64,000 bases of DNA from a bacterium (lineage in GTDB: Bacteria > SM23-81 > DAOVCL01): NCBI GenBank assembly GCA_029932675.1, contig JAOZPP010000008.1, positions 130 to 64,129 on the forward strand. The letters run 5' to 3'. The notes beneath the pieces were generated by a model that was given only the letters and a program-made list of their open reading frames with translations, did no database searches and had not been told where the DNA came from. Both the position numbers and the translations under genes were made by a program. How positions within the stretch are numbered: position 1 is the stretch's first letter; each line of letters begins with the position of its first letter. Shown here one piece after another: positions 32,093 to 45,746 of the stretch.

Positions 32093-35017
32093 TTATTTCA
32101 ATAAGACCATCTTCTTAATGGAGGAGAAATCACCCGCCCTCAGCCTACAGAAGTAGATACCCGAGGCCATACTATGAGCATTCCAGGTGATGGTCTTATA
32201 GCCAGGAGCCTGTTTCTCATCCACCAAGGTAGCTACCTTCTCCCCTAAGATGTTGTATACCTCCAAAAGAACGTGGATCGTGCTCGTAGCTCGTGAACCC
32301 TCTTCTGCCAGACCCTTAAGGTTAGTGTGGGAGGAGTGATCTCCGGGTAACGAGTAACGAATAACGGTAGTGGAGTTAAACGGGTTGGGGTAGTTCTGTT
32401 CCAGGGCAAACTCCTTGGGTAAATTGCTCTTCCCAGCTTTGACTACCCATTCCACAGATAGAGGTTGCACCTTAGACCCATATATCTCAACATTCTTCCA
32501 ACTCAGCCCCATATTACCCTTCTTCTTAACCTCAAAGGCTACCTTACCAATCCGATGTGTCCCAGGCTTCAGCAGCTTGGCCATCTCTATGTCTGGCACA
32601 GCCCCTATCCGCACTACTCCTGCTTGCCGAGTATCCACCGCCCAGAAGTCATACTCATCCCCACCTTCTACTTCCTTGAACAGCAGAGTGGTAGCGTCAT
32701 AGCCCAGGGAGATGTCCAACCCACATACCGACTCAGCTACCGTCAGATCAACAGGTACCTGCACCAATCCATCATTTATTACAGGATTCCCGGCTACCAA
32801 CTTGTCCATCGCACCCAACCTGCTTACTGAGGGTTTATAGGGCACAGTTTTGCCCCCCATGCAGAATCGATGCCAGATACAGTGCAAATTATCCTCAGTA
32901 GGGTCGATACCACAGTTCGGGTAGGGAGGTGGAGGGAGAATAGACTTTGGAACTCCAAAGATGAATTGTAACGCCATCAAAGGATCATTGGTCAGAATAC
33001 TACCGTCATCATCGTAATCGGCAGCGTCCTCACAGGAAGCAGGAAATGCCCCAGGAACTCCAAAGATCGACTGTAGCTCCATCAGGGGGTCCTGGGTCGA
33101 CACCACCCCATCGCTATTATAGTCCCCCCGGATGAACTGATTGCTCCCTCCCCATACGACGGTCATCGCAGGATCACCTAAAAGACAAAGCTGATAGTAA
33201 CACCATCTTATTGCTCCATATTCGTCTGATGAGACGTATGCTGCATTGTCCTCCTTGGAGTCATCAAAAGATAATCCCAAGGTGACCAAGCCTTCCCCGA
33301 AGATGGCATCGAAAAACTGCCTATCGAACAATTGATTGGGTCCACAAGTGTTATCCATATACCCCCAGCCAAAACGCGTATTGCCGATGAAGGCCACTGC
33401 TCCATAGGGGCCGGAAGTAAAATGTTCGGATATGGCATCAGTACCTGGGTGTACTCTCCCATCTCCATAAGGAGGGGGAGGTTCCCGGTTGTCGAAAGCG
33501 TTAGAATAGCAGCCCTGACAGTAGACGATATAATAGCCACCGCTAATCCCATCATTGGTTAACGCTGTATCGACATCATCATTTACCATCCTCATCGTAT
33601 AGGAGACATTGGAGTGGCCTAGGTGATTTACCAGGTTTACCCCTCCATTGAGTAAGGGAATGAGAGTATACTTATCCCACCGTTCTGGATCAAGGTCTCT
33701 GTCGTATAAGGTGGTCACTTGAAAGCGGTCCGGAAATCCGGCAGTGGTGAAGCCGCAGGTGCTACAGCTATCCTTCACCTCATCCTTATAATCTCCCCCC
33801 CATACTGTACTTCCTACTCCCAGGTACTCACCTACCATCAAGGCCCTGTTAACATCCCCCCACACCGGTTGTTGTTGATAGGAGATCACCTTGTGGATGA
33901 AATTGTCAGCCTCGGTTGTCGTATTAACGCAAGCCCGGCCAACCGATACCTCGGCAAAAAGGTCCACCTCCCCTCCATCAGGACCATCATTCGGCTCACC
34001 ATAAATATTGTTCTGGTTATAGTCGAATGTCCCATCTAAGCATCCGTAGTAGAGATCTGCTGGAATGTCATAGTCTGTCCATCCGGAAGCAGATCCATAG
34101 AAACCCTTATGAGGAATTAGATCATCATCACCGCCTAAAAGAACATAGCTTATCCCAAAGGTTTGGTAGTAAAGGGTGATCAGATTACGTATCAGCTCCG
34201 GCGTGGCCTCACCAGTTATGGTTCGGACAACAGCAGATAGCCCTCTCGAATTGTAGTAGTCTGCTAGACTCTGAAAACTGGGGACAAGATCATTGGTGGT
34301 GATGATAAGATAATCATAAGTTGTTTGAGAAGGTGGCAAAGACGCTGTCTGGGGATATCTCCGCAGAGCATGATAAGAGGCGATCTCCTGTGGGTTGTCC
34401 ACCAATCTCTTCACCCGTGCTTGGACGTTGGGAGAGTTCCTGATCATCCGCTCGCTCTCCGCCAGGGCCTTTGTTGATCTCCGGGTAGTTATCTTCAACT
34501 CCAATTGAGGGAAATATAAAAGTGTCCGATCTTTGGGCATATATACTACTGGATAGAGATTAATTAGGACAATTCGATAGCCACAGACTCTCTGGATGGA
34601 GACCAGATCATAAAGCTTAGCTGGATATTGATTGGGGGAAGCATAGATCTTCGGGTCTGGTGCCACTGGCTTCAATCGATACGGAAAGGATATGGGGATA
34701 ACAGGTTGCCCGGGTTTTATCAGGTAACCACTACCGAACCTCTCCATTTTGGGGTGGAAAACCTGCACAGAGTCAACATTGAAACCCGCCGGGAGCAGCA
34801 CCTTCACGCTTTTCACTGGTAGAACCGGTTTCCCCACCTGACCTAAAGAAGGCACTCCCTCGATGGAAACCTGATCATAAGACCCGATTCTTTGGATAGT
34901 GGGCGGAGGAAATCTAAAGCTTAACCTAATCGTCCTCGCAGATCCACTTACCTGGGAGGTTATAGTGAGGGAGAAAGGTATCAATAGGAACCCTAAGGCT
35001 ATCTTTCCTCTTTTCAT
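32093..35017 (-). CDS. Secreted gingipain-family (C25) cysteine peptidase with propeptide, dockerin-like and cohesin-like domains and C-terminal sorting (Por-tail/FlgD-like) domain
   Basis: Signal peptide; YVLLGGD, DLYY, VGR, NHLGHS and QGCYS catalytic His/Cys; FIRGDYNSDG...AADYDDDG; QNYPNPFN...KKMVLLK. Confidence 0.85.
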   Translation of the reverse strand: MKRGKIALGFLLIPFSLTITSQVSGSARTIRLSFRFPPPTIQRIGSYDQVSIEGVPSLGQVGKPVLPVKSVKVLLPAGFNVDSVQVFHPKMERFGSGYLIKPGQPVIPISFPYRLKPVAPDPKIYASPNQYPAKLYDLVSIQRVCGYRIVLINLYPVVYMPKDRTLLYFPQLELKITTRRSTKALAESERMIRNSPNVQARVKRLVDNPQEIASYHALRRYPQTASLPPSQTTYDYLIITTNDLVPSFQSLADYYNSRGLSAVVRTITGEATPELIRNLITLYYQTFGISYVLLGGDDDLIPHKGFYGSASGWTDYDIPADLYYGCLDGTFDYNQNNIYGEPNDGPDGGEVDLFAEVSVGRACVNTTTEADNFIHKVISYQQQPVWGDVNRALMVGEYLGVGSTVWGGDYKDEVKDSCSTCGFTTAGFPDRFQVTTLYDRDLDPERWDKYTLIPLLNGGVNLVNHLGHSNVSYTMRMVNDDVDTALTNDGISGGYYIVYCQGCYSNAFDNREPPPPYGDGRVHPGTDAISEHFTSGPYGAVAFIGNTRFGWGYMDNTCGPNQLFDRQFFDAIFGEGLVTLGLSFDDSKEDNAAYVSSDEYGAIRWCYYQLCLLGDPAMTVVWGGSNQFIRGDYNSDGVVSTQDPLMELQSIFGVPGAFPASCEDAADYDDDGSILTNDPLMALQFIFGVPKSILPPPPYPNCGIDPTEDNLHCIWHRFCMGGKTVPYKPSVSRLGAMDKLVAGNPVINDGLVQVPVDLTVAESVCGLDISLGYDATTLLFKEVEGGDEYDFWAVDTRQAGVVRIGAVPDIEMAKLLKPGTHRIGKVAFEVKKKGNMGLSWKNVEIYGSKVQPLSVEWVVKAGKSNLPKEFALEQNYPNPFNSTTVIRYSLPGDHSSHTNLKGLAEEGSRATSTIHVLLEVYNILGEKVATLVDEKQAPGYKTITWNAHSMASGIYFCRLRAGDFSSIKKMVLLK

Positions 35018-35026
35018 CGTTCCCTC

Positions 35027-38000
35027 CTATTTTAATAGAACTATTCTACGTGTGGCAGTATAGCCACCTGTCTGCAACCTCAGAAGATAAATACCCGAGG
35101 CCAGACCACTGGCATTCCAGGTAACACTCTTGTAACCAGGGGGTTGCTTCCCATTCACCAGGGTGGCCACTTTTTCCCCTAAGATGTTGTATATCTCCAA
35201 AAGAACGTGTATCCTGCTCGTAGCTCGTGAACGATCTACGGGTAACGAGTAACGAATAACGGTAGTTGCATTGAAGGGATTGGGATAGTTCTGGGAGAGG
35301 CTGAAGTATTGGGGAAGGTCCTCTGCCCGATTCTCGGATAGGCCTACTGGGATAAGCTGAAAGTCCACCACCGTAGTCTCTGCCTCAATACTCTCCACTC
35401 CTGGTTGAGCTAAGCTTCCATAGCCTTCCTTAGAGACTGAGACCTTGTAGGTGTCGGGGAGCACATAGGAGATGCTATAATAGCCATCTCCAGTAGTGGT
35501 ATCCTCACCTACTACCAGTGTGTCCTTCTCAATCTGCACCAATACACCTTGTAGGGGATTCTCATCGTTATCCTTTACCCAGCCGGCAATACAACTCCCA
35601 GGAGATTTAGCCCATACCGTGTCACTGCCCTGAAAGCTTCCTGCCCCTGTGACTGTGCCGCTAATGGTGGCAGAAGTACAGTGAAGGGGATCAATAACTC
35701 GCAGTGCAGTGAGTTGATCGAAGGTAACCATTAGATCCTCTTGCCCATCATTATCATAGTCGCCAACAACCCAGGGTTCTGGATAAGGTTGCATACTCTT
35801 ACCTCCGCATCCACGCAGGGTAACCTCCGTTATATCCTCCACGGGAATCCCATCTGAGAGTTCGATATAACATTCAACAGGAGGAAGATCAGGGACCAAA
35901 TCCAAAGTATCAGGAACGAATTGGACAACAACCTTTGCTGGACCTACCCTAAGGTGCAGGGGAATAGTGACCAGGGAATCCAAGGGATCGTTACTGGAGA
36001 CGAAAATGTTTGCATAGTAATCATCAGAGGGAAGATCAGTTACATTGAAGACCATTGCTACATCGACTCCATCCCCAGCCTGAATGGTGCCGGAAGCAGG
36101 GCCGTAATCACACCACCTCTTATCTACATGATATCGATAAATAGGTCCGTCCCAATCAGATACAAGAATATAATTGCCATCGTAGGTGATACCATCGTAG
36201 CAGGGTTGGTTGTGTATAGAGTTAAAGGAATTTATCTCCAGAGCACTGGTGAAGGATACATCCCACGAACGAGCAATCCTATCCGCTGATCCAATTGTCC
36301 ATAGGAGACCATATGCCCAGGTGGCACCGCTGACCGCATCTCCAATACTGGCATTTACAGTCCGGACAACTATCCCAGAAGTATCTACCTGGTATAATGT
36401 TGGGTTGTCAACCCAACTCGCCTCCGATAGCCATAAATAATTGCCATCCCAGGCAATGGCCGGTTGGGAGATTAAGGGAGCAGCAAATGAACCAATGTTA
36501 TTACCAGTGGTATCGTATTCGTAGATCGTTGAGCTATTACTCCCGATCCACAGATTGGTTCCATCGAAGGTTAAGCCATAGGGAGAACTATGAATGGCAT
36601 ATTGGGCTAATACATCCCCAGAGACAGAGTCCATTTTATAAAGGATTCCATCATCAAGGTCAACCCCCCAGAGATTGATGCCATCAAAGGTGAGCCCAGT
36701 GCATCCGGTAAATGGAAGCCTTAACCGACTCACTCTATTGCCAAAGTTTGCTAATAGATCATCCGTGAGGGTGTAGTGCAATGGTCCGGTCCCCCTATTG
36801 GTAATAGTGAGGGTATGAAATAAATCAATCTGTCCTGGGGACAAAGCTACATCAAAAGACGTTGGAGTAATTCCGATGTTAGGCGGAAAATTCCCTGAAC
36901 CTTTCATAAGAACCCAAATGAGGGGGTCATCTGGATCATTTGATGTAATGGATAAAACTCCAAACTGGTCACCTAAGCTGGTGGGAGCAAACACAACCGC
37001 CACCTCTTGAGTCATGCCTACATCCAAGGTGAAAACAGTGGGCTGGACGGTAAAATGCTCATTGCTACTGGCAATACCAGTAACATCCAATACAGTGGTG
37101 CCCACATTGTGTACCAGAAGCTTCAAGGTCTTTGGGAATCCAAGACTGGTTTCTCCGAAATCGAGCAGATCAGGTTGCACACCAATGACCGTTTTTTGGG
37201 GCACGATACCTGATGAAAGCTGTGCGTAAACACAGTCACCCTGGACGGTGGGGACCGGAGGATCATCTGATGTCACCGTATAGTAGGGTATTCTCGACCT
37301 ATAATTGCCATAGTATTCAATGGAAAACTTTTTGATCTCCCCGGTTGTGCTACTTCCGCGATCATAGGCCTCCAACCAGTAGTTAGAGGAGTCTCCATCA
37401 ATCAACTCGCTGATATCAAAGACGATGTCATTTGCAGGAAAAGGCCATGGACCGGCATTAGTATACTTGGGGTTGAATTCTTTCACCTGGTCAGGGTTAC
37501 CTAAGTCACCTGAACCGATCCTTATCAAACATCTATTTCTTTCGGGATAATCTATGTTAAAGACTGAAACAAGTGTGGGCTGATAGCCAATGCGATCGTA
37601 ATAATACATACAGTATTCAACCCTCTGCCTCATCGCTTCGTAGGACATCCACCAACATCCATCACTGTCCTCCTCTCCATTCCAGGTTGGCCCCCAGGAA
37701 TTGGCGATCTTGAATGCCCCATAACGAACCTCCCCCTCCTCTACATACGATTTGCTATCATCGAATCCCACCACCGTATTAAGATGGTTAAAAAGTGGGT
37801 TGACATAGTTATCCAATGTGGCCATCTCATGTAGCTGGTATCCATCAACACCTATTACTGGAAGGATGGTGGGCACAGATAGCAGCAAGTTCCTCAAATT
37901 CTGGATTGATGAACTCAGATCGATATACCTTATACCATCTGCCTCTGCCCGGTAAAGCGGAGCCTCCCTCCAGGCCGATTCTGAGGGCCAACTTGAGTGG

Positions 38001-38650
38001 TCATCGGGATCATTGGGCATCTCCTTCCAGGTGCAAGCACCAATTCTCTGGAGCACATCCCAGGCATCATCAGGGCTACTCCCGCAATTACATCCCCTAT
38101 TGATCTGGTGATAGATGAAAGCAGGACTGAATATCTTATCCTGATAAGCACTTGATGGATGGCCGTAATAAATCCCTCCTACCCAATCTGCTGCGGAAAG
38201 GTCCCAGTTGTGCTCCTCTGCCTCCTGAAATGTCTTCGCATAGTAAACTATAGCCCAACAGGTGCAAGAACCTTGCATACCCTGGCTACCAATGGGCGGG
38301 AAGAACTTGCTCTGGCTGTGATCTATATGGATAACTCCCTTGCGTTGCGGATCGGTGAGGATGATTTCATCTACCATCTTGGCCTCTTGGGCTATCTCTT
38401 CCCAGCCTTTTTCAGTGGGTGGCTGCAGACCTGTGCCGTGGCCATCAATTATCTCATTGTAATTCTTCCCTTCCTTGTAGGTGCCGAAGTGTTGCTTTAG
38501 CTTTTCCAACTCATCAGGCCTGATCTTATGGGATACCTCAATGAAGTTCCTCTTGGCCAGAACAGTTGAACCAAAGAGAAAACAACTCAAGTTGGCAACC
38601 ACAGCCAAACTTATTGCCAGTTTAAACCTAAACCCTTGTGGAATAGGCAT
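35027..38650 (-). CDS. Secreted papain-family (C1) cysteine peptidase with Ig-like, beta-propeller-like, carboxypeptidase-regulatory-like and C-terminal sorting domains
   Basis: QGMQGSCTCWA, NHLNTVVGFDD, IANSWG; SNDPD Ig-like repeats; GLTFDG.NLW repeats; QNYPNPFN tail. Confidence 0.85.
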   Translation of the reverse strand: MPIPQGFRFKLAISLAVVANLSCFLFGSTVLAKRNFIEVSHKIRPDELEKLKQHFGTYKEGKNYNEIIDGHGTGLQPPTEKGWEEIAQEAKMVDEIILTDPQRKGVIHIDHSQSKFFPPIGSQGMQGSCTCWAIVYYAKTFQEAEEHNWDLSAADWVGGIYYGHPSSAYQDKIFSPAFIYHQINRGCNCGSSPDDAWDVLQRIGACTWKEMPNDPDDHSSWPSESAWREAPLYRAEADGIRYIDLSSSIQNLRNLLLSVPTILPVIGVDGYQLHEMATLDNYVNPLFNHLNTVVGFDDSKSYVEEGEVRYGAFKIANSWGPTWNGEEDSDGCWWMSYEAMRQRVEYCMYYYDRIGYQPTLVSVFNIDYPERNRCLIRIGSGDLGNPDQVKEFNPKYTNAGPWPFPANDIVFDISELIDGDSSNYWLEAYDRGSSTTGEIKKFSIEYYGNYRSRIPYYTVTSDDPPVPTVQGDCVYAQLSSGIVPQKTVIGVQPDLLDFGETSLGFPKTLKLLVHNVGTTVLDVTGIASSNEHFTVQPTVFTLDVGMTQEVAVVFAPTSLGDQFGVLSITSNDPDDPLIWVLMKGSGNFPPNIGITPTSFDVALSPGQIDLFHTLTITNRGTGPLHYTLTDDLLANFGNRVSRLRLPFTGCTGLTFDGINLWGVDLDDGILYKMDSVSGDVLAQYAIHSSPYGLTFDGTNLWIGSNSSTIYEYDTTGNNIGSFAAPLISQPAIAWDGNYLWLSEASWVDNPTLYQVDTSGIVVRTVNASIGDAVSGATWAYGLLWTIGSADRIARSWDVSFTSALEINSFNSIHNQPCYDGITYDGNYILVSDWDGPIYRYHVDKRWCDYGPASGTIQAGDGVDVAMVFNVTDLPSDDYYANIFVSSNDPLDSLVTIPLHLRVGPAKVVVQFVPDTLDLVPDLPPVECYIELSDGIPVEDITEVTLRGCGGKSMQPYPEPWVVGDYDNDGQEDLMVTFDQLTALRVIDPLHCTSATISGTVTGAGSFQGSDTVWAKSPGSCIAGWVKDNDENPLQGVLVQIEKDTLVVGEDTTTGDGYYSISYVLPDTYKVSVSKEGYGSLAQPGVESIEAETTVVDFQLIPVGLSENRAEDLPQYFSLSQNYPNPFNATTVIRYSLPVDRSRATSRIHVLLEIYNILGEKVATLVNGKQPPGYKSVTWNASGLASGIYLLRLQTGGYTATRRIVLLK

Positions 38651-38737: not shown

Positions 38738-38836
38738 TTAAGCAAAAAAGGCCCTCCATCTTGCCCATGGGACAAAAAGAGAGCCTTTAAAGGTTTTTCA
38801 TTCTACCTCACCCCCTTAAAGATCAAAGGGATTTTT
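38738..38836 (-). promoter_or_regulatory. Leader/attenuator copy A (SD hairpin, uORF MKNL 38787-38801, terminator)
   Basis: Near-identical to 42054-42152; hairpin followed by U6. Confidence 0.7.
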
Positions 38837-38930
38837 TTCCTTTTACACCTATGGTGGTGCAACAAAAAATATGGAATAGGCAGCTATAGGCATTAGCTGA
38901 CGAAAGGAAATTCCATAAGTCAACCACTTA

Positions 38931-38954
38931 CGCAACCTGAAAGGTTGCGGCTAC
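38931..38954 (-). repeat. GTAG-type REP-like palindrome
   Basis: Minus strand gtagc-cgcaacct-ttc-aggttgcg; related copy at 61016-61037. Confidence 0.45.
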
Positions 38955-38988
38955 CCTATTTTGCGACTTTTGCCTAATTATCACCTAT

Positions 38989-39355
38989 CACTACTGTCCG
39001 GTTATTAGTTGAATAATGACAATTGCTTATAGCATTCGCCCTTCAGCTCTTTGCGAGCGAAATCCGTAAGCACCTGTAAGATAGGCGATTTTTCGAAAAC
39101 GGTGACGCTCAGACTCTGTAGAATTGTGTAGAGACTGAGGTCCAGATGAGCCCGTTTCTTAACAATGGCGACGAGGACAAACACTGAGATGGCAGTCCAT
39201 ATTGGAGTCTTCACGGCATTTTCGGATGCGCCGTAGAAAGTGGAATGACCATAGTATACAAAGGATTTGAAATCGATAACAGTTATTTTCGCTCGCAACT
39301 CAATTTCATCAATGCAGTTACAACAAAGTCAAGAGCAAACAATCGGACAGTAGTG
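38989..39355 (-). mobile_element. Internally deleted IS4-family element (367 bp) retaining the transposase C-terminus
   Basis: TIRs cactactgtccggtt / aatcggacagtagtg; 9-bp direct repeat atcacctat at 38980-38988 and 39356-39364; FYGASENAVKTPIW..ISVFVLVAIVKK...LYTILQ resembles the IS4 transposase C-terminus. Confidence 0.88.
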
Positions 39356-39368
39356 ATCACCTATATAT

Positions 39369-39397
39369 AATTTACTCCTTTGGCCTGTGGATGTCAA
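39369..39397 (-). promoter_or_regulatory. sigma70-type promoter for the C1/C25 operon
   Basis: TTGACA-17 nt-TAAATT. Confidence 0.55.
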
Positions 39398-39454
39398 GGG
39401 TTTTTTCGGCCCCTCGAAAGGGAGGGCCCTTTTGGACCCTCCCCTTATCGGGCC

Positions 39455-41740
39455 TTATTTCAACAGCAACATCTTCCTGACGGCGGTAAACTCCCCAGCT
39501 TTGAGCCTATAGAAGTAAATGCCTGAGGCCATCCCTTCGGCATCCCAGGTAACTGTCTTGTACCCAGGGGTTTGCTTCTCATCCACCAGAGTGGCCACCT
39601 TTTGCGCTAAGATGTTGTATACCTCCAAACGGACGTATATCCTGCTCGTAGCTCGTGAACCCTCTTCTGCCAGACCCTTGAGGGTAGTGGGGGAGGAGTG
39701 ATCTACGGGTAACGAGTAACGAATAACGGTAGTTGCATTGAACGGATTGGGGTAGTTCTGGAAGAGGGCAAACTTCTTAGGTAGAGCGGCAACTTCTCCG
39801 TTTGGTTCAATCCCTACCCTTACGGAATCCACCACTTCAATCGTTGGTTCGTCTCTACTCCCGCCGAGCACGCTGAACTCCGCCCTGTGATTGGGAATAG
39901 AGATGGGATAGACGCCTGGGGTTGCCCCTTCATCCACAGCAAAATCTATCTGGGCTAAGCTCTGCTCTCCCTCTTCTGGTTTGAGGTACTTGGAATTGTC
40001 GCAGTCAAAGCTAAAGAGAACCCCCAGATGAAGGACATCGTACCCCTCAAGAGAAGGTGTACCTGTGGTGTCGTAATACCACTGATGGTAATCGGCAGAG
40101 GCCGCTTTGCCGAAGTAGCGGACCTCAAAAGGTGTTAAACACTCCGGGTATAAAAGTTCATCTATCCCCACAGCCTCCACCGGATTTGTTCCTGCCTGGG
40201 CAACCACAACTACCGATAAGGTATCACCTGGTTCTGCAGAACCCTCTGGGACAAATTTTAACCTGTCCCCCTCTTTTGGAGTATTCAGTTGGCCTTTTCT
40301 GCCGGATTGGGTAATTATTGCGTTGCCACTTTGACTATAAAAGTCAGGGATCAGCCCCTCAGGGTTACAGGGTGGGAAGCGGTCGCAGCCGAGGTTGTCA
40401 TTGGTGGAATCTGTGCCACAATCAGGAAAAGGTGGTGGTGGGGATGGGCCTAAATTGTTAAGATACAAGAGCAGATACATAGGATCGGCTATCCCCACCC
40501 AACCATCGTCATTGGCATCATAGGAGTCGTCGCATCTGAAGGCTGGCTGGAAGCCGGAATACAAGTAGTTCAATAGTCCTATAACATCGCCCATGTCCAC
40601 CGCAGTTGTGGCATCGTAATCCCCTCGTATAAAGCGGACGGGTTTACAGACGGAGCCATCGTCCAGCTCTGGATGGATCGTGGTATCCCCACACATCCAG
40701 TAGGTGCTATCCGGTCCAGAGATAGTGAGGAGGCAGCAATGGCCGGCAGGAATGCTGTCGGCAACTTCAAAAATGAGATCCCAGAACCGGTACATATCTG
40801 GCGGCCAATCCGGAGAACCAGTAAGGCTCGCTAATAAACCGCAGAGGATATACGCCTGATGGTAGTTGCAGGAAACATTAAAGATTGCTGGGGTAGGGAT
40901 GACATCATAAAGCGTGGTATAATCATTACCCAAGGGGTCGGTGCCGGTGACCTCATAGTCTATCCCCATGCAGCGGAGACAGCTTGTATCGAAATCTGCT
41001 CTGAAGGTTATGGCATCAAGGCCATCACAGCAGACTCGGCCGTAAATAGGTACCCTAACTCTACATGGACTAATTGGTGGTGCCATAACGCTGTCCGGGA
41101 TGATCATCTTGTCCTGGCAGCATTTGCCATATACCCCAATGGCCCATCTGGTGGAGCAGCTCAGGGCCACCGCGTTTGTCTGCCAGGTGGTCCCTGTATC
41201 TGAGGTGAAGAACCCATTCTCATCCGGGTCTGAACCGCAGCTATCGGAGGCCATAAATGTAAGGGCTGTAGCACTATCCCCGGAGAGGATATAAGCGAAG
41301 TAATAGGCTCCAGGGGAGAGGAGCAGATCGATACCATCGATCGTGGCAAAGACCCAGCCTGAATTTCCAGGTAGGGCAACTGGGGGTGAGGTGTATATTG
41401 TGTTAGCAGCGTCTGGTCCATCTGCATCCCCATCGTGATAGACATAGAAATTCACATAGATGCCTGGAACATAATACCCTGGGTAATTGTAAAAGAGCGC
41501 ACGCATTGTTTTCAAGGAACAGGGAAGGGTTACCTCGCATCTGTTTGCCCCACCCTCTCCAGGATGGCCTAAATCGGACCATAATTTGATCCCTGGGTAG
41601 GCGCATATGGTGTCCACTTGGGGACTGCTGAGATCACTGAGGAGAGCCATTTTGGCCCCGGTGCTGGTGGTAGAAAGGTTCAGGCCTATCAGGGGTAAGG
41701 CGAAAATCGCCAAACTGATTAAGACAAATCTCTTGGCCAT
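39455..41740 (-). CDS. Secreted Cys-rich protein with cohesin-like, dockerin-like and cohesin-like domains and C-terminal sorting domain; no catalytic motif recognised
   Basis: Signal peptide; FIRGDYD...DANDDGWVGIAD; VRVPIY...ITFRADFD and PGDTLSVVV beta-sandwich patterns; QNYPNPFN tail. Confidence 0.7.
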   Translation of the reverse strand: MAKRFVLISLAIFALPLIGLNLSTTSTGAKMALLSDLSSPQVDTICAYPGIKLWSDLGHPGEGGANRCEVTLPCSLKTMRALFYNYPGYYVPGIYVNFYVYHDGDADGPDAANTIYTSPPVALPGNSGWVFATIDGIDLLLSPGAYYFAYILSGDSATALTFMASDSCGSDPDENGFFTSDTGTTWQTNAVALSCSTRWAIGVYGKCCQDKMIIPDSVMAPPISPCRVRVPIYGRVCCDGLDAITFRADFDTSCLRCMGIDYEVTGTDPLGNDYTTLYDVIPTPAIFNVSCNYHQAYILCGLLASLTGSPDWPPDMYRFWDLIFEVADSIPAGHCCLLTISGPDSTYWMCGDTTIHPELDDGSVCKPVRFIRGDYDATTAVDMGDVIGLLNYLYSGFQPAFRCDDSYDANDDGWVGIADPMYLLLYLNNLGPSPPPPFPDCGTDSTNDNLGCDRFPPCNPEGLIPDFYSQSGNAIITQSGRKGQLNTPKEGDRLKFVPEGSAEPGDTLSVVVVAQAGTNPVEAVGIDELLYPECLTPFEVRYFGKAASADYHQWYYDTTGTPSLEGYDVLHLGVLFSFDCDNSKYLKPEEGEQSLAQIDFAVDEGATPGVYPISIPNHRAEFSVLGGSRDEPTIEVVDSVRVGIEPNGEVAALPKKFALFQNYPNPFNATTVIRYSLPVDHSSPTTLKGLAEEGSRATSRIYVRLEVYNILAQKVATLVDEKQTPGYKTVTWDAEGMASGIYFYRLKAGEFTAVRKMLLLK

Positions 41741-42053
41741 TTTCCCCTCCTTACACTAAAACACCTAAAGGTGATCAATCAGGTTTGATCCCCTTTGCAA
41801 CAAGAGCCAGTTGAACTATCTAAAATCCGTCCCCCCTTTCCTCAACTTGATTTGGCTCTCAAATCTTAGCTTGAAGGGGAGTAATCTTTCCTTGGTTACC
41901 TGGTGGCAAAGCAATAGACAAACTTGCTGATATTGCTAATTTCGTGGCAGAACAGGGGCTCTGCCAGTTCACTTTCGGTAATATGATTATTCCTAACATC
42001 CAGGGTGAGTGCAGATTAGACTGAACCGTCGAAAATTTATGAACAATTCGGGT

Positions 42054-42152
42054 TTAAGCAAAAAAAAGCCCTCCATCTTGCCCATAGGGCAAAAAGAGAG
42101 CCTTAAAGGTTTTCCATTCTACATCACCCCCTTAAAGTTCAAAGGGATTTTT
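42054..42152 (-). promoter_or_regulatory. Leader/attenuator copy B (uORF MENL 42103-42117)
   Basis: Near-identical to 38738-38836; terminator with U8; TTGACA-17-TAGTAT promoter at 42195-42167. Confidence 0.7.
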
Positions 42153-42254
42153 TCGACTCCGATTATATACTACTACTTCGGGCGATGAATGTCAAGGGTT
42201 TTTAGAACCCCCTGGGAAGAGGGAGGGTTCAAGAGAACCCTCCCTCATTTGACT

Positions 42255-45200
42255 TTATTTCAACAGGATCATCTTTTTGACGGCGGTAAACTCCCCGGCT
42301 TTGAGCCTATAGAAGTAGATACCAGAGGCTATACTATGAGCATTCCAAGTGATGGTCTTATAGCCAGGGGTCTGTTTACCATCCACCAGGATGGCTACTT
42401 TCTGTCCCAAGACGTTGTAGACCTCCAGGCTAACCGCTGATCGTTGATCGCTGACCGCTGGAATAGTGTAACGAATCACAGTGGTTGCATTGAAGGGATT
42501 AGGATAGTTCTGGGAGAGGCTGAACTTCTCCGGAAGCCTCTCGTTGGAGGGGGTTTCTTCCGCTTTTACTCCTGTCCAGGGGGTGACCTCGAAATCGTCA
42601 ATAAACCAACCGCCATAGGTGACATAGCCGTCTGACCCAAATCGGAAACGAAACCTTACCGTCCCCGAATAACCGGAGAGATCGAATTCGACTTTGGACC
42701 AGTCAGATTGGCCAGAGAAACAGGGGGTACCAGGATTGAAGGGGCTTGCTGGGTTGTCTATGATCAAGTATGGATAGCCGCCGATTGGGGTTATCTGCTG
42801 CCAACCGCTTCCACTGTCTATCTCCACGATGCCACCGTCCCAGGCCCAGGTAGCATCCTCTGTCTCAGCGCTGATCCAGTGCCAGAAGGAGAGTTTTGCG
42901 TTCTGGCCCAGCCTCACCTCTGGGGAGACAAGTCCCGCATCATCAAGGTTGGAATAGCTGCTTGAGACCTTGCCGCACTTCCAACTATATCGTCCTCCAG
43001 AGGTATGGTTTCTCTCGGTGCTCAAGTGCCATTCGTCCTTGTAACCTGGGGTGACTGAGTAGTGCATCCAATCCTCCCTCCACCAATCTTCCATAGGGTC
43101 TACATAGCCTGTGCTATCCCCTACAGAGGTATTGAAGCTGGCAGACCCCTTAAATCCCCTTTCTCCTCGGATCTCCAGATCAAAAACGACTATATACGGG
43201 TCGATTGAACAGCCGGGTGCGACAGAGAATTCAAAGGGGAAGGTGGGGGAGACCGTACTGTCGGGAAGGGCATTGGGATAACCTGCGCTATCCACCAAGA
43301 TATTCACCCAGGAGGCACTAGTGGAAATCCTTGCCCAAAGGGAGGTCAGATCTGCCGTTCCCTGGTTGAGAAGCTCGATGTAAAGCTGCACAGTATCCCC
43401 TGGATCGGCGTTTCCATCTCCATTCCCGGAAGCGGTATCCACAATACTATAGGAATTAAAAACCAGATCGGGGGCCTTTGTGAGCAGCTCTATAATCTGG
43501 TGGCGTTGGAAACCTCCGCTGGCCGTAACATCCACCCTCAGATTGGCTCTATGCTCAGGCGGAGAGGTACCGGCGAGGGAAAGAGCAAAGGGTTGGAGGC
43601 TCGGGACCCTTGACCAGGGAGAGGCATCTGGGAAGTTGACATTCTCAGTCAAGATGTTTACCAGCGTATCTTCAGTAGAGAGGGTGGCTGATATTTGGGT
43701 GAGGCTCTGACTGCTCATATTCTCCAGAACCACCTCCATCTCTATTGTCTCCCCGGCCTCGAATTCCCCATCCCCGTCCCCATCGCTTTGCCCTGCTTGG
43801 TCATCATCAATTGTTTGGGAAAGAAAATAGAGCCCATCAGCCTTTCTGCACAGCCCAGGCTCCCCATATAGGGTGAACTCATAAACGTTTTGGAGTTCCG
43901 TATCCCCGAAATGATCAATGTAGTTGAGCTTGGCACTCATCAGGGCATCCCCTACTTTTTCCGAATTGTTAATTAGGTGGTGATAGAACCAGTAGTCCAA
44001 GGAATTGCAGCCTCCATCGTTTTCATCGTCCCAACCCCAGGCTCCAAAGGCGACCCTGGTGGCGACCACAATTCCTGCAGAGCCATTTTTCAAAAGCTCC
44101 TTGCCGATGTTGTCCTCCTCAGGCACCCCGTTAGAGCAGGAAGAGCCAAAGATGATAGACGGGTAGCTGTCATCGAGAAGGGGAACCTGATCCGTGGAGA
44201 TGAAGGGAGTACCGTGAAACTCAGGAGGATCACAGGTATCCTCAGGCACTCCATCGCCGTCGTCCCAGCTCCAAATCCTCCGGTAGGAACCATACCAGTT
44301 GCCATGGCCAGACCAGTTGCAGATCCCATAATGGCCTGAATTCCAATAGGAGACCACATTCGAGGTGCAGAGGGAGTCCTCATGGGGATAGGATGAAGGG
44401 TCAAGGCCGGCATCCTCGTAGAGGCGGGTATAGCTTGAGGTTGGGGGAAGGATATCGGCTATCATCTTCTCCATCAGACAAGCCCCATCGGTTTTTAGGC
44501 TTCCCCCTCCGTTCTCATTCCCATACCAGGTTATCGCCGCCAAAAGCAGAGCGTCATCCTTCCAATCCCCTCCATCTGATTCAAACCTCACCAGCTTCTC
44601 ACAGATTGTCTGCACTGTGGCCGGATCGCCCCAAGGGATTCTCCCCGGTGTTATCTCCGGGATTAAGTCGAAATCGTCCTCCCCGACCTCACCATAGTAG
44701 CCATCACCATCTGAATCCCAGTCCCCAGTTAGGTCGGCGTAGTAGTAGTCAGTCCAGGGGGAATACCAGCCAGCGGAATCATGCTCAGAGGGATAGGGGA
44801 AGCATTGCCGCATAGGGACATCCGTGATGTCTCCCACAAACAGCACCCACCTTATCCCCCACTGGGATTGGGGATACTTGTCGATGAGGAAGTTTCTTAT
44901 CCTCTCGGCCAGGTCCTCCCCGGTGTAATGGGCAGAGATCCAGGAAGTGGTAACGACCTCCACCCCATAGCCTATACCCTCTTTCCAGGCAACGAGGGTG
45001 TCCACCGCGCTCTCCAGGGCGTCAGTGGTGACTATCACATACTCGTAGGTGCTTTTGGAATCCCCCATGGAAGGAGGATACCAACTTTTGATCTGGGGGT
45101 AATTGACAAACAGTTTGGAGGCCAGTTCTTCAGCCAGGATATCGGAGGCTAACCTTTTGGCCTCCTTCTCCTGCTGGCTGCCCTTTGAGGGAAGGGAATA

Positions 45201-45746
45201 GTTTACCGAAACAACTAAGGAGCTCCGGTAGGTGAGCCTTCCTGATCTGGGGAAATAGGAGAAGGGATAAAAGGCAACCCTCACCAAGGGATATCTCCTT
45301 AGTGCCCCAAAGCCGAGGTACTTACCCCCCTGGGAAGGATAGGCTGCATTAGATTCATAGGTCTCTTCATAGTTAGTGCGGTACTCCTGGAGAGCCCTCT
45401 TTATGAGAGCGGGAATAGGATCCATCGGGAGCATAGGCGGAGCCGGCCTGATCCTATATTTTCCTGCTAAATCCAAGGGGCTCCCCTCACCGATCTCCAC
45501 TGAAGAGACCTCTGCTCCCGGGGGTAGGGCAATGGTAAAGACCTTCATCGGCAATTTAGGTTTACCGGAAATCAGGAGGCTGCCGAACTCCTCCATCACT
45601 ATCTCATCATATCCCTCAACATCCTTGAGGATCTCGTAAGGGTTAGCCCTCAAGGTCACCTTTAGGTTCTCAGCTCTTGCACCCCTCCCTAAGAGGGACA
45701 AGAGCAAAGCCAACGCTGCGGTAAAGCCCAATCTCGGTGAGATCAT
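42255..45746 (-). CDS. Secreted C25 cysteine peptidase with propeptide, Ig-like domains, InhA/adhesin-like beta-sandwich and C-terminal sorting domain
   Basis: VLFVGD, DYYYADL, PGRIP, NWSGHG, SSCSNG; LSFWHW...DGGIVE...FRFRFGSD...GWFIDD; QNYPNPFN tail. Confidence 0.85.
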   Translation of the reverse strand: MISPRLGFTAALALLLSLLGRGARAENLKVTLRANPYEILKDVEGYDEIVMEEFGSLLISGKPKLPMKVFTIALPPGAEVSSVEIGEGSPLDLAGKYRIRPAPPMLPMDPIPALIKRALQEYRTNYEETYESNAAYPSQGGKYLGFGALRRYPLVRVAFYPFSYFPRSGRLTYRSSLVVSVNYSLPSKGSQQEKEAKRLASDILAEELASKLFVNYPQIKSWYPPSMGDSKSTYEYVIVTTDALESAVDTLVAWKEGIGYGVEVVTTSWISAHYTGEDLAERIRNFLIDKYPQSQWGIRWVLFVGDITDVPMRQCFPYPSEHDSAGWYSPWTDYYYADLTGDWDSDGDGYYGEVGEDDFDLIPEITPGRIPWGDPATVQTICEKLVRFESDGGDWKDDALLLAAITWYGNENGGGSLKTDGACLMEKMIADILPPTSSYTRLYEDAGLDPSSYPHEDSLCTSNVVSYWNSGHYGICNWSGHGNWYGSYRRIWSWDDGDGVPEDTCDPPEFHGTPFISTDQVPLLDDSYPSIIFGSSCSNGVPEEDNIGKELLKNGSAGIVVATRVAFGAWGWDDENDGGCNSLDYWFYHHLINNSEKVGDALMSAKLNYIDHFGDTELQNVYEFTLYGEPGLCRKADGLYFLSQTIDDDQAGQSDGDGDGEFEAGETIEMEVVLENMSSQSLTQISATLSTEDTLVNILTENVNFPDASPWSRVPSLQPFALSLAGTSPPEHRANLRVDVTASGGFQRHQIIELLTKAPDLVFNSYSIVDTASGNGDGNADPGDTVQLYIELLNQGTADLTSLWARISTSASWVNILVDSAGYPNALPDSTVSPTFPFEFSVAPGCSIDPYIVVFDLEIRGERGFKGSASFNTSVGDSTGYVDPMEDWWREDWMHYSVTPGYKDEWHLSTERNHTSGGRYSWKCGKVSSSYSNLDDAGLVSPEVRLGQNAKLSFWHWISAETEDATWAWDGGIVEIDSGSGWQQITPIGGYPYLIIDNPASPFNPGTPCFSGQSDWSKVEFDLSGYSGTVRFRFRFGSDGYVTYGGWFIDDFEVTPWTGVKAEETPSNERLPEKFSLSQNYPNPFNATTVIRYTIPAVSDQRSAVSLEVYNVLGQKVAILVDGKQTPGYKTITWNAHSIASGIYFYRLKAGEFTAVKKMILLK

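Follow-up and report, generated by a model that had tools for sequence, protein, structure and literature searches.

A 64,000-nt stretch of DNA from an uncultured hydrothermal-vent bacterium (assembly GCA_029932675.1, contig JAOZPP010000008.1, positions 130 to 64,129; hereafter the window) carries two copies of a leader element in which an extended Shine-Dalgarno (SD) sequence is paired within a hairpin, a mini open reading frame (mini-ORF) of four codons follows and the stop codon abuts an intrinsic terminator. Together with further members in its genus, these copies represent a real, conserved and lineage-restricted leader cassette tied to genes for cargo proteins of type IX secretion (T9SS). 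An earlier interpretation made from the letters of the window, which we call the sequence-only reading, had proposed a transcription attenuator. Our analysis supports this proposal in part, and we see about an even chance for what we consider the best reading, namely that the cassette would act as a cis-acting ribosome-occlusion transcription attenuator of the pyrBI/pyrE/ampC kind.

Anatomy, position and conservation of the leader cassette

The two copies, c1 (window 38842-38736) and c2 (window 42158-42052), both lie on the minus strand and align over ~100 nt, beyond which their flanks are unrelated save for a duplicated block further upstream. Their parts are as follows:

38810..38832, minus strand: c1 hairpin 1, AUCCCUUUGA-UCU-UUAAGGGGGU, with the SD at 38817-38808
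38787..38801, minus strand: c1 mini-ORF, AUG AAA AAC CUU UAA (MKNL)
38744..38786, minus strand: c1 intrinsic terminator, 17 bp with one bulge and U6, beginning 1 nt past the stop codon
42126..42148, minus strand: c2 hairpin 1, AUCCCUUUGA-ACU-UUAAGGGGGU, with the SD AAGGGGGUGA at 42133-42124
42103..42117, minus strand: c2 mini-ORF, AUG GAA AAC CUU UAA (MENL)
42060..42103, minus strand: c2 intrinsic terminator, 16-17 bp with one bulge and U8, beginning 0 nt past the stop codon

Over the element the copies are identical at 87/94 positions, with the seven differences distributed as one in each hairpin loop, two in single strands, one extra A past the stop codon and two G-C to G-U changes within stems; none of them disrupts a base pair. 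In both copies hairpin 1 is a 10-bp stem of AUCCCUUUGA and UUAAGGGGGU that pairs the extended SD, the sole difference within it being the loop (UCU in c1 vs. ACU in c2), and an 8-nt spacer separates the hairpin from the AUG of the mini-ORF. Each copy folds more stably than all of its dinucleotide shuffles (200/200 for each; z = -3.5 for c1 and -3.2 for c2), the terminator scan returned energies of -22.1 kcal/mol (c1) and -21.5 kcal/mol (c2), U-rich tracts are present in the 5' arm of the terminator (CUCUCUUUUUG), and the U-tract at its end lies ~55-65 nt past the AUG. The strength of the SD was judged by the usual anti-SD sequence because the 3' end of the 16S rRNA was not found in the assembly. 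The sequence-only reading had described two minus-strand copies, an SD-burying hairpin differing between them in its loop only, the mini-ORFs MKNL and MENL, and a terminator 0-1 nt past the stop codon with U6 or U8 and a U-G vs. C-G change in its stem; with alignment and folding in hand, this description of the element is accurate.

To look beyond the window, we searched its own genome (G000; 3.03 Mb, 97% complete), the other two genomes of its genus (G001 and G002) and four genomes of the other family of the phylum, which together are the seven species genomes by which the genome collection covers this phylum. Two covariance models were used, R1 built from c1 and c2 alone and R2 from five members. 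BLAST, nhmmer and R1 agree on four members in G000; R1 added two of these plus one in G001 (contig C43), and R2 found one in G002 (contig C27, 46.4 bits). The family thus comprises c1, c2, C93:29728-29828 and C102:27771-27891 (all G000), G001:C43 and G002:C27. Within G000, nhmmer returned no further member (next best match E 0.04), and in the four genomes of the other family R1 and R2 gave no convincing match. The sequence-only reading had proposed a covariance model and an Rfam search, and had not recognized the element as a described motif; the searches now place members in three genomes of one genus and, with the window reaching threshold in Rfam 15 with a tRNA only, yielded no Rfam match to the element, in keeping with that view. 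The best sub-threshold Rfam match on the element was Clostridiales-2, at 18.7 bits vs. a threshold of 58.6.

Pattern searches reached wider. A terminator-based pattern had 0 matches outside G000 in a collection of 185,579 species, and a metagenome pattern (TTAAGGGGGTG-N5-7-ATG-N40-65-TTTTTT) gave at least 117 stretches, of which 80 were examined; none of these 80 fits the model at the element, one has a weak match (E 0.19) elsewhere in its locus, and the 80 are chance SD plus ATG sites. A full-text literature search found no leader or attenuator linked to T9SS cargo genes. Among the candidates set aside, a 33-nt DNA match at G002:C42 lacks both a following terminator and an AUG where the alignment would place it, and the weak model matches at G002:C11, G001:C52, G001:C183 and G004:C300 resemble ordinary terminators or hairpins without relation to the element. 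The G002:C42 locus carries a GGGGGUGAU-type leader motif ahead of a gene for a secreted FG-GAP protein.

The position of the family members is distinctive. With T9SS cargo recognized by its sorting domain (CTD, Por_Secre_tail), the six members without exception point in the same direction as the next gene, and five of them sit 82-312 nt upstream of a cargo gene, several of the downstream products being C25 or papain-like peptidases:

c1: next gene a 1207-aa T9SS cargo, at 82-88 nt
c2: next gene a 761-aa T9SS cargo, at 312 nt
C93: next gene an 876-aa T9SS cargo with a papain/C39-like Cys motif, at 141 nt
G001:C43: next gene an 1124-aa cargo with a weak C25 match (24.1 bits), at 196 nt
G002:C27: next gene a 1360-aa C25 peptidase with propeptide, at 94 nt
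C102: next gene mraZ, not T9SS, at 544 nt

Since CTD-bearing ORFs make up only 149 of the 3053 ORFs of at least 120 aa in G000 (~5%), five of six before cargo is far above chance, even if c1 and c2 are counted as one event. Terminator-like hairpins in general are not enriched in the leaders of T9SS genes of this genome (16/127 vs. 310/2847 for other genes). Four of the five cargo genes have no sigma-70-like match between the terminator and the start codon, the fifth (G002) having a weak 9/12 match, and promoters were found upstream of the element, at a distance of 17-27 nt in c2, G001 and G002; the promoter scan covered sigma-70-like matches alone.

The members in the two sister genomes are particularly informative. 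G001:C43 and G002:C27 are identical at 170 of 198 positions over a span that begins at the -35 box and ends ~50 nt past the terminator, vs. 33-40% in their flanks and 87.2% for the clpC coding DNA of the same two genomes; the downstream genes are not orthologues (24% identity over a part), and the upstream genes are unrelated. Judged by these alignments, the two appear to be a portable promoter-leader cassette of ~200 bp, kept about as well as a core gene and placed in different locations before cargo. What differs between them is concentrated within two places, the mini-ORF and the 5' arm of hairpin 1. For the C93 member, which follows clpC and has a weak promoter match, the DNA after clpC is unalignable among G000, G001 and G002; the clpC neighbourhoods are not syntenic, so that neither sister genome offers a counterpart to the C93 site.

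Conservation extends to the mini-ORF, in frame and position and not in sequence. Five of the six members have an ORF of 4-7 codons that begins with AUG and whose stop codon lies 0-1 nt from the terminator stem; the ORFs outside the window are:

G001: AUG CCC AAA AUU GUC UGA (MPKIV), 1 nt from the stem
G002: AUG CCA AAU UUG UGU UUU AUG UGA (MPNLCFM), 1 nt from the stem
C93: AUG AGA AGU GAA GAU AGA UGA (MRSEDR), 0 nt from the stem

The peptides of diverged members share nothing, the coding part measures 12-21 nt and is always a multiple of 3, the G001 and G002 mini-ORFs differ by a 6-nt indel, and the AUG lies 7-9 nt past GGGGG in all but C93. A fixed frame and stop position combined with a free sequence is what would be predicted of a ribosome-positioning ORF and not of the seed of a small RNA (sRNA). 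In a scan of G000, 8 of 1989 terminator-like hairpins had in front of them an SD and an ATG ORF of at most 10 codons, with the end of the ORF at -1 to +2 nt relative to the stem; c1 and c2 account for two of these 8. The layout is not enriched in this genome relative to shifted stops (8 vs. 9 at offsets 6-9 and 11 at offsets 12-15), and its rarity (~0.5% of terminators) makes its recurrence in diverged members meaningful.

Pairing is conserved as well. In a five-member alignment 94.4% of cells pair, compared with 36-69% in slid controls, and double-sided pair changes number 7 vs. 2.8 in shuffles (3 of 500 shuffles reach 7); this alignment is fitted to the model and so leans towards it, and its terminator half is expected to pair regardless. 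The predicted unpaired probability of the SD core is 0.01 in c1, 0.006 in c2, 0.13 in C93, 0.21 in G001 and 0.16 in G002, all five below the median accessibility of gene starts (n = 300; median 0.395, 25th percentile 0.206). On these folding estimates, sequestration of the SD appears clear in c1 and c2 and moderate elsewhere. Among the findings that would undo it, the sequence-only reading had named homologues that do not keep the ATG/stop or the pairing, and a dispersed repeat in random orientation to genes. The extended SD, the ORF and the stem-abutting stop codon are kept in five of six members, the pairing is kept as described, and a dispersed repeat or miniature inverted-repeat transposable element (MITE) is rejected, with 4 copies in 3.03 Mb, each co-oriented with the next gene. 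The attenuator idea survives these objections.

The promoters of the two window copies, and the DNA that now parts one of them from its leader, are as follows:

42167..42195, minus strand: sigma-70-like promoter of c2, TTGACA-17-TAGTAT, with a predicted start ~8-17 nt before hairpin 1
39369..39397, minus strand: paralogous promoter TTGACA-17-TAAATT, originally that of c1 and now 535 nt upstream of it
38988..39358, no strand assigned: inserted repeat of 371 nt, 97.8% identical to G000:C16:23903-24273 at the end of contig C16

The claim of a TTGACA promoter ahead of each copy holds directly for c2, whose -10 box ends 17 nt ahead of the hairpin region; it fails for c1, which has been split off from its promoter by an insertion of ~520 nt, 371 nt of which match the repeat on contig C16. 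The inserted repeat contains a 97-codon ORF at 39005-39298 (~97-107 codons over the two copies), which matched none of the Pfam and NCBIfam models, and it is probably a fragment of a mobile element. The duplicated block exceeds the element itself, reaching back through the promoter AAAAACCCTTGACAT and a GGGAGGG hairpin into the 3' end of the preceding gene. Identity amounts to 131/166 over the last ~166 nt of the upstream gene, which encode the T9SS sorting domain, and to 28/38 over the promoter region, leaving the element (87/94) as the best-conserved piece of the block. GGGAGGG...CCCUCCC hairpins end both upstream T9SS genes (42219-42246 and ~39412-39448) and have no U-tract on the coding strand, for which reason the terminator of the leader may also end the upstream operon.

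A candidate ribosome-occlusion attenuator and the alternatives

An intrinsic terminator between promoter and regulated gene on one strand, as well as an SD-led ORF whose stop codon is near enough for a ribosome to cover the 5' arm of that terminator, are features of an attenuator, and the cassette has both, the second in five of six members (not C102). We surmise that transcription would start at the sigma-70-type promoter and that the first ~25 nt would fold into a hairpin hiding a very strong SD. Without a loaded ribosome, the transcript would end at the strong terminator ~50 nt downstream and the gene would be off. If a 30S or 70S particle gains the SD, it would read the 4-7-codon ORF and park on the stop codon touching the 5' arm of the terminator, covering ~10 nt of that arm; the hairpin could then not close and polymerase would enter the cargo gene. 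The 11-nt complementarity of the SD to the usual 16S tail could quicken the capture of a ribosome and could also hold it in place on so short an ORF, and the U-rich 5' arm of the terminator could pause polymerase. The signal might be the availability of ribosomes, a temperature effect on hairpin 1, or a factor that opens this hairpin or binds its 5' arm. Temperature could be an input to hairpin 1, but an RNA thermometer of the ROSE or fourU type is rejected: the hidden SD serves the mini-ORF, while each cargo gene has an SD of its own, 82-312 nt further on.

Among the closest known systems are pyrBI and pyrE (rph-pyrE) of E. coli, in which a ribosome following close behind polymerase blocks closure of the terminator hairpin with no elaborate alternative structure. 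The cassette resembles these in having a promoter-proximal leader with an ORF running up to or into an intrinsic terminator; it differs in the brevity of the ORF (4-7 codons), in the SD being pre-locked in a hairpin and in the lack of any sequence similarity, and the UTP-sensitive pause tract is theirs, as is the link to nucleotide biosynthesis, whereas the cassette genes encode T9SS-exported proteins. The ampC leader, reportedly described by Jaurin and colleagues in 1981, is said to contain an SD and an AUG-UAA start-stop before a hairpin that ribosome binding was proposed to block. Like the cassette, ampC, a case of growth-rate-dependent antitermination, has a terminator between the promoter and the regulated gene that is able to end an upstream operon; unlike it, ampC belongs to another organism, with other targets and another sequence, and the cassette adds a 4-7-codon ORF, an SD-locking hairpin and a portable promoter. 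By what PMC6045580 says of ampC, the E. coli attenuator doubles as the terminator of the frd operon, and ribosome availability has been proposed as its input. Were the attenuator reading to hold, the mechanism would belong with the pyrBI/pyrE/ampC class and would not constitute a new principle.

Experimental precedent for the predicted role of the stop codon comes from the tR2 constructs in E. coli. In the tR2 results of Li et al. (2016, PMC4824070), shortening the distance between the stop codon and the downstream terminator from 28 bp to 5 bp lowered termination from ~90% to <10%, and removing translation by deletion of the ribosome-binding site restored it. The stop codon a few bp before a terminator is the likeness, the gap in the cassette being 0-1 nt; the difference is that tR2 was placed synthetically after a full-length gene, and the same results have repression weak where the terminator is less than ~100 nt from the start codon, as it is here. 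The trp, his and pheL attenuators and those with antibiotic-sensing upstream ORFs likewise let a short translated leader ORF govern an intrinsic terminator. Theirs, however, depend on regulatory codons or stalling peptides and on alternative antiterminator and terminator structures, whereas in the cassette the peptides are unconserved, codon runs are absent and no convincing competing helix was seen by eye.

Several observations weigh against the attenuator reading. 1) The family is small, with six members in three genomes of one genus, and two of these members fit poorly: the AUG of C93 is just 2 nt past the SD core GAGG, and C102 has no stem-abutting ORF and lies 544 nt from mraZ, its only start-stops being an AUG-UGA and an AUG-UAA that end 25 and 13 nt ahead of the stem. 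2) Predicted sequestration of the SD is strong in c1 and c2 only, the other three members falling at about the 11th-25th percentile of gene starts, and G001 and G002 use differing pairing registers to hide it. 3) No convincing alternative antiterminator pairing was seen by eye; the candidate considered, the 3' arm of hairpin 1 with the 5' arm of the terminator, offers ~7 pairs, mostly G-U, as judged by eye with no dedicated computation, and the terminator (-22 kcal/mol) would dominate any antiterminator. 4) In the portion of PMC4824070 concerned with distance from the start codon, an E. coli terminator 30 bp past the AUG loses only ~10% of its efficiency to translation because the first ribosome lags polymerase and needs 100-200 nt to catch up, and short leaders such as pyrBI are there said to need a polymerase pause.

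Three alternatives were weighed against the attenuator. The first, which we consider unlikely, is that the members are stand-alone sRNA genes producing a trans-acting RNA of ~95-120 nt, which would work by itself or be what termination at an attenuator yields, with the T9SS adjacency stemming from the history of duplication. Each unit does have its own promoter and strong terminator, as a small gene would, and C102 could well be read in this manner: it lies 544 nt from mraZ, which by eye has a TTGACA box of its own, and it contains three GGAUG motifs in a genome that encodes a CsrA homologue. Trans-acting RNAs derived from attenuators are also on record, at least for rnTrpL in what PMC6614838 reports of it. 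Such a gene would, however, have no need of co-orientation with its neighbour in six of six cases or of a place before T9SS cargo in five of six, and four of the five cargo genes lack a sigma-70-like promoter of their own. No conserved single-stranded seed is present; the part of the element that joins hairpin 1 to the terminator varies most in sequence and length and yet keeps the ORF, and the conservation between G001 and G002 runs ~50 nt past the terminator. Hfq was not detected in the 97%-complete G000, and a trans-acting sRNA of the Hfq type was accordingly set aside, with promoter and terminator present and neither conserved seed nor Hfq found.

A passive intergenic origin, in which the terminator ends the upstream operon, the promoter is there by chance and the mini-ORF and SD hairpin are relics of a segmental duplication, seems to us quite unlikely. 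It would account for the 3' end of the upstream gene and the promoter having been carried along in the c1/c2 duplication, for a terminator that may serve upstream genes whose own hairpins have no coding-strand U-tract, and for C93, with its weak promoter match, behind clpC; the ampC attenuator likewise serves as the frd terminator, as PMC6045580 has it. Relics would not be expected to be kept better (87/94) than the co-duplicated coding 3' end (131/166) or promoter (28/38), nor would a promoter travel with the cassette between genes that are unrelated on both sides in G001 and G002. In addition, the stem-abutting stop codon recurs in diverged members vs. a chance of ~0.5% per terminator, and a promoter right before a strong terminator is senseless unless a short RNA or conditional read-through matters.

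The third alternative borrows from the STAB-SD, known as a 5' mRNA stabiliser of Bacillus thuringiensis cry3A in what PMC4113751 tells of it; the likeness is a 5' untranslated region (UTR) SD that does not start the main gene, ahead of a highly expressed exported product, and the difference is that the STAB-SD is accessible, has no terminator and acts against RNase J1, while here a sequestered SD is followed by a mini-ORF and a terminator. That a 30S particle on the 5' SD, together with the hairpin, shields cargo mRNA and that the terminator is secondary is improbable: orphan extended SDs are indeed enriched before T9SS cargo (12/86 vs. 6/1094), 5 of those 12 have no nearby start codon, and G001, G002 and the C81 analogue described below carry such a motif past the terminator, but hairpin 1 locks up the SD in c1 and c2, contrary to what a standing 30S site would call for, no account is given of so strong a terminator (-22 kcal/mol) directly after the ORF, the conserved adjacency of stop codon and stem has no role, and no RNase J homologue was detected in the 97%-complete G000. 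The cassette was not classed as a STAB-SD, its SD being paired and followed by an AUG 7-9 nt on, with no RNase J detected.

If the attenuator reading were true, the cassette would be a minimal attenuator with neither protein nor ligand, with hairpin, mini-ORF and terminator packed into <100 nt; its modular build would have let it be moved before unrelated genes, and it would offer a natural example of ribosome-occupancy sensing and a part for synthetic biology. Very little is known about the control of the hundred-plus T9SS cargo genes in lineages outside the Bacteroidota. We tentatively postulate, as a possibility that we hold more doubtful than the attenuator itself, that the portable ~200-bp cassette would be a regulon switch for T9SS-exported peptidases, sensing free ribosomes or temperature through the locked super-SD and the parked ribosome, within a wider and undescribed use of orphan SDs in the T9SS cargo leaders of the phylum.

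Orphan SD sequences, C102 and the cargo genes of the window

T9SS sorting-domain loci number 149 in G000, at least 82 in G001 and at least 117 in G002, very many for small genomes, and many stand in tandem arrays. In G000, intergenic orphan SDs of the form [AG]GG[AG]GGTGAT, 25-300 nt before a start codon, precede 12 of 86 T9SS cargo genes vs. 6 of 1094 others (Fisher p = 1.4e-10), on contigs that include C3, C13, C28, C71, C81, C85, C98, C104 and C108. In 5 of the 12, a start codon is missing from the 2-12 nt range; the others lead into ORFs of 1-22 codons. A sigma-70-like promoter lies within 200 nt of 1/12 only. In T9SS cargo mRNAs these orphan SDs may act as ribosome-standby sites or in the manner of a STAB-SD, and perfect SDs of this kind before T9SS genes merit a separate genome-wide study.

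Just past the terminator of G001:C43 and G002:C27 lies a conserved stretch with a motif of similar type: UUUAUUUUUGCAAAAAUAAA forms a perfect palindrome across the U-tract, and after it comes GAGGGGGUG(A/G)UAA(G/A)GGAGAAGAAAAA, a second super-SD that lacks a start codon. The motif ahead of the FG-GAP gene in G002:C42 is similar to it. A layout analogous to the cassette but not homologous to it is present at C81:18294-18327 (G000:C81:18160-18430), consisting of TTGACA-17-TATATT, a 7-bp hairpin over SD and AUG, and an MVRVT ORF whose stop codon touches a 13-bp terminator, with the gene of a 1499-aa T9SS cargo (LTD, GEVED) 336 nt downstream. A GAGGGGGUGAUAAAGGA motif follows ~85 nt later, and the R2 score of this locus is just 4.2 bits.

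C102 shares the terminator of the family and has a differing 5' half, with a TTGACA box, a TAGTAA-like -10 box and three GGAUG motifs (GAGGAUGUGAUUAAGGAUGUAAGGAUGA); it adjoins a divergent sigma-factor gene. It looks more like an sRNA than a leader, and could be a small RNA predicted to bind CsrA, a homologue of which is encoded at C18:49015-49149 (35 bits).

Around c1 and c2 the genes are all on the minus strand, and all six of the six large ORFs tested encode T9SS cargo, in the order M14 carboxypeptidase, C25 peptidase, c2, 761-aa protein, inserted repeat, c1, 1207-aa protein and a second C25 peptidase. The genes nearest to the two copies are as follows:

42255..45746, minus strand: C25 (gingipain-family) T9SS peptidase gene; the duplicated block covers its 3' end with the stop codon and the next hairpin
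39455..41740, minus strand: 761-aa T9SS cargo gene with a signal peptide, a good SD and Por_Secre_tail, 312 nt past the c2 terminator
35027..38650, minus strand: 1207-aa T9SS cargo gene with Ig-like, CarboxypepD_reg and Por_Secre_tail domains, 82-88 nt past the c1 terminator
32093-35017, minus strand: second C25 peptidase gene, 9 nt after the 1207-aa gene

The sequence-only reading had spoken of protease genes under the control of the leaders. This stands in part for the 1207-aa protein, whose papain-like match is weak and below the Pfam cut-off, and does not stand for the gene after c2, since the 761-aa protein has the sorting domain only and no recognizable catalytic domain. Neither protein has a full-length orthologue in G001 or G002, the matches being mostly to the sorting domain. 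The DNA from the c2 terminator to the 761-aa gene contains no sigma-70-like match. Within the 5' UTR of this gene (~41795-41760, minus strand), a hairpin AAAGGGGAUCAA...UUGAUCACCUUU was seen by eye, pairing an SD-like run with a copy of the usual 16S tail, ~20 nt before the real SD of the gene.

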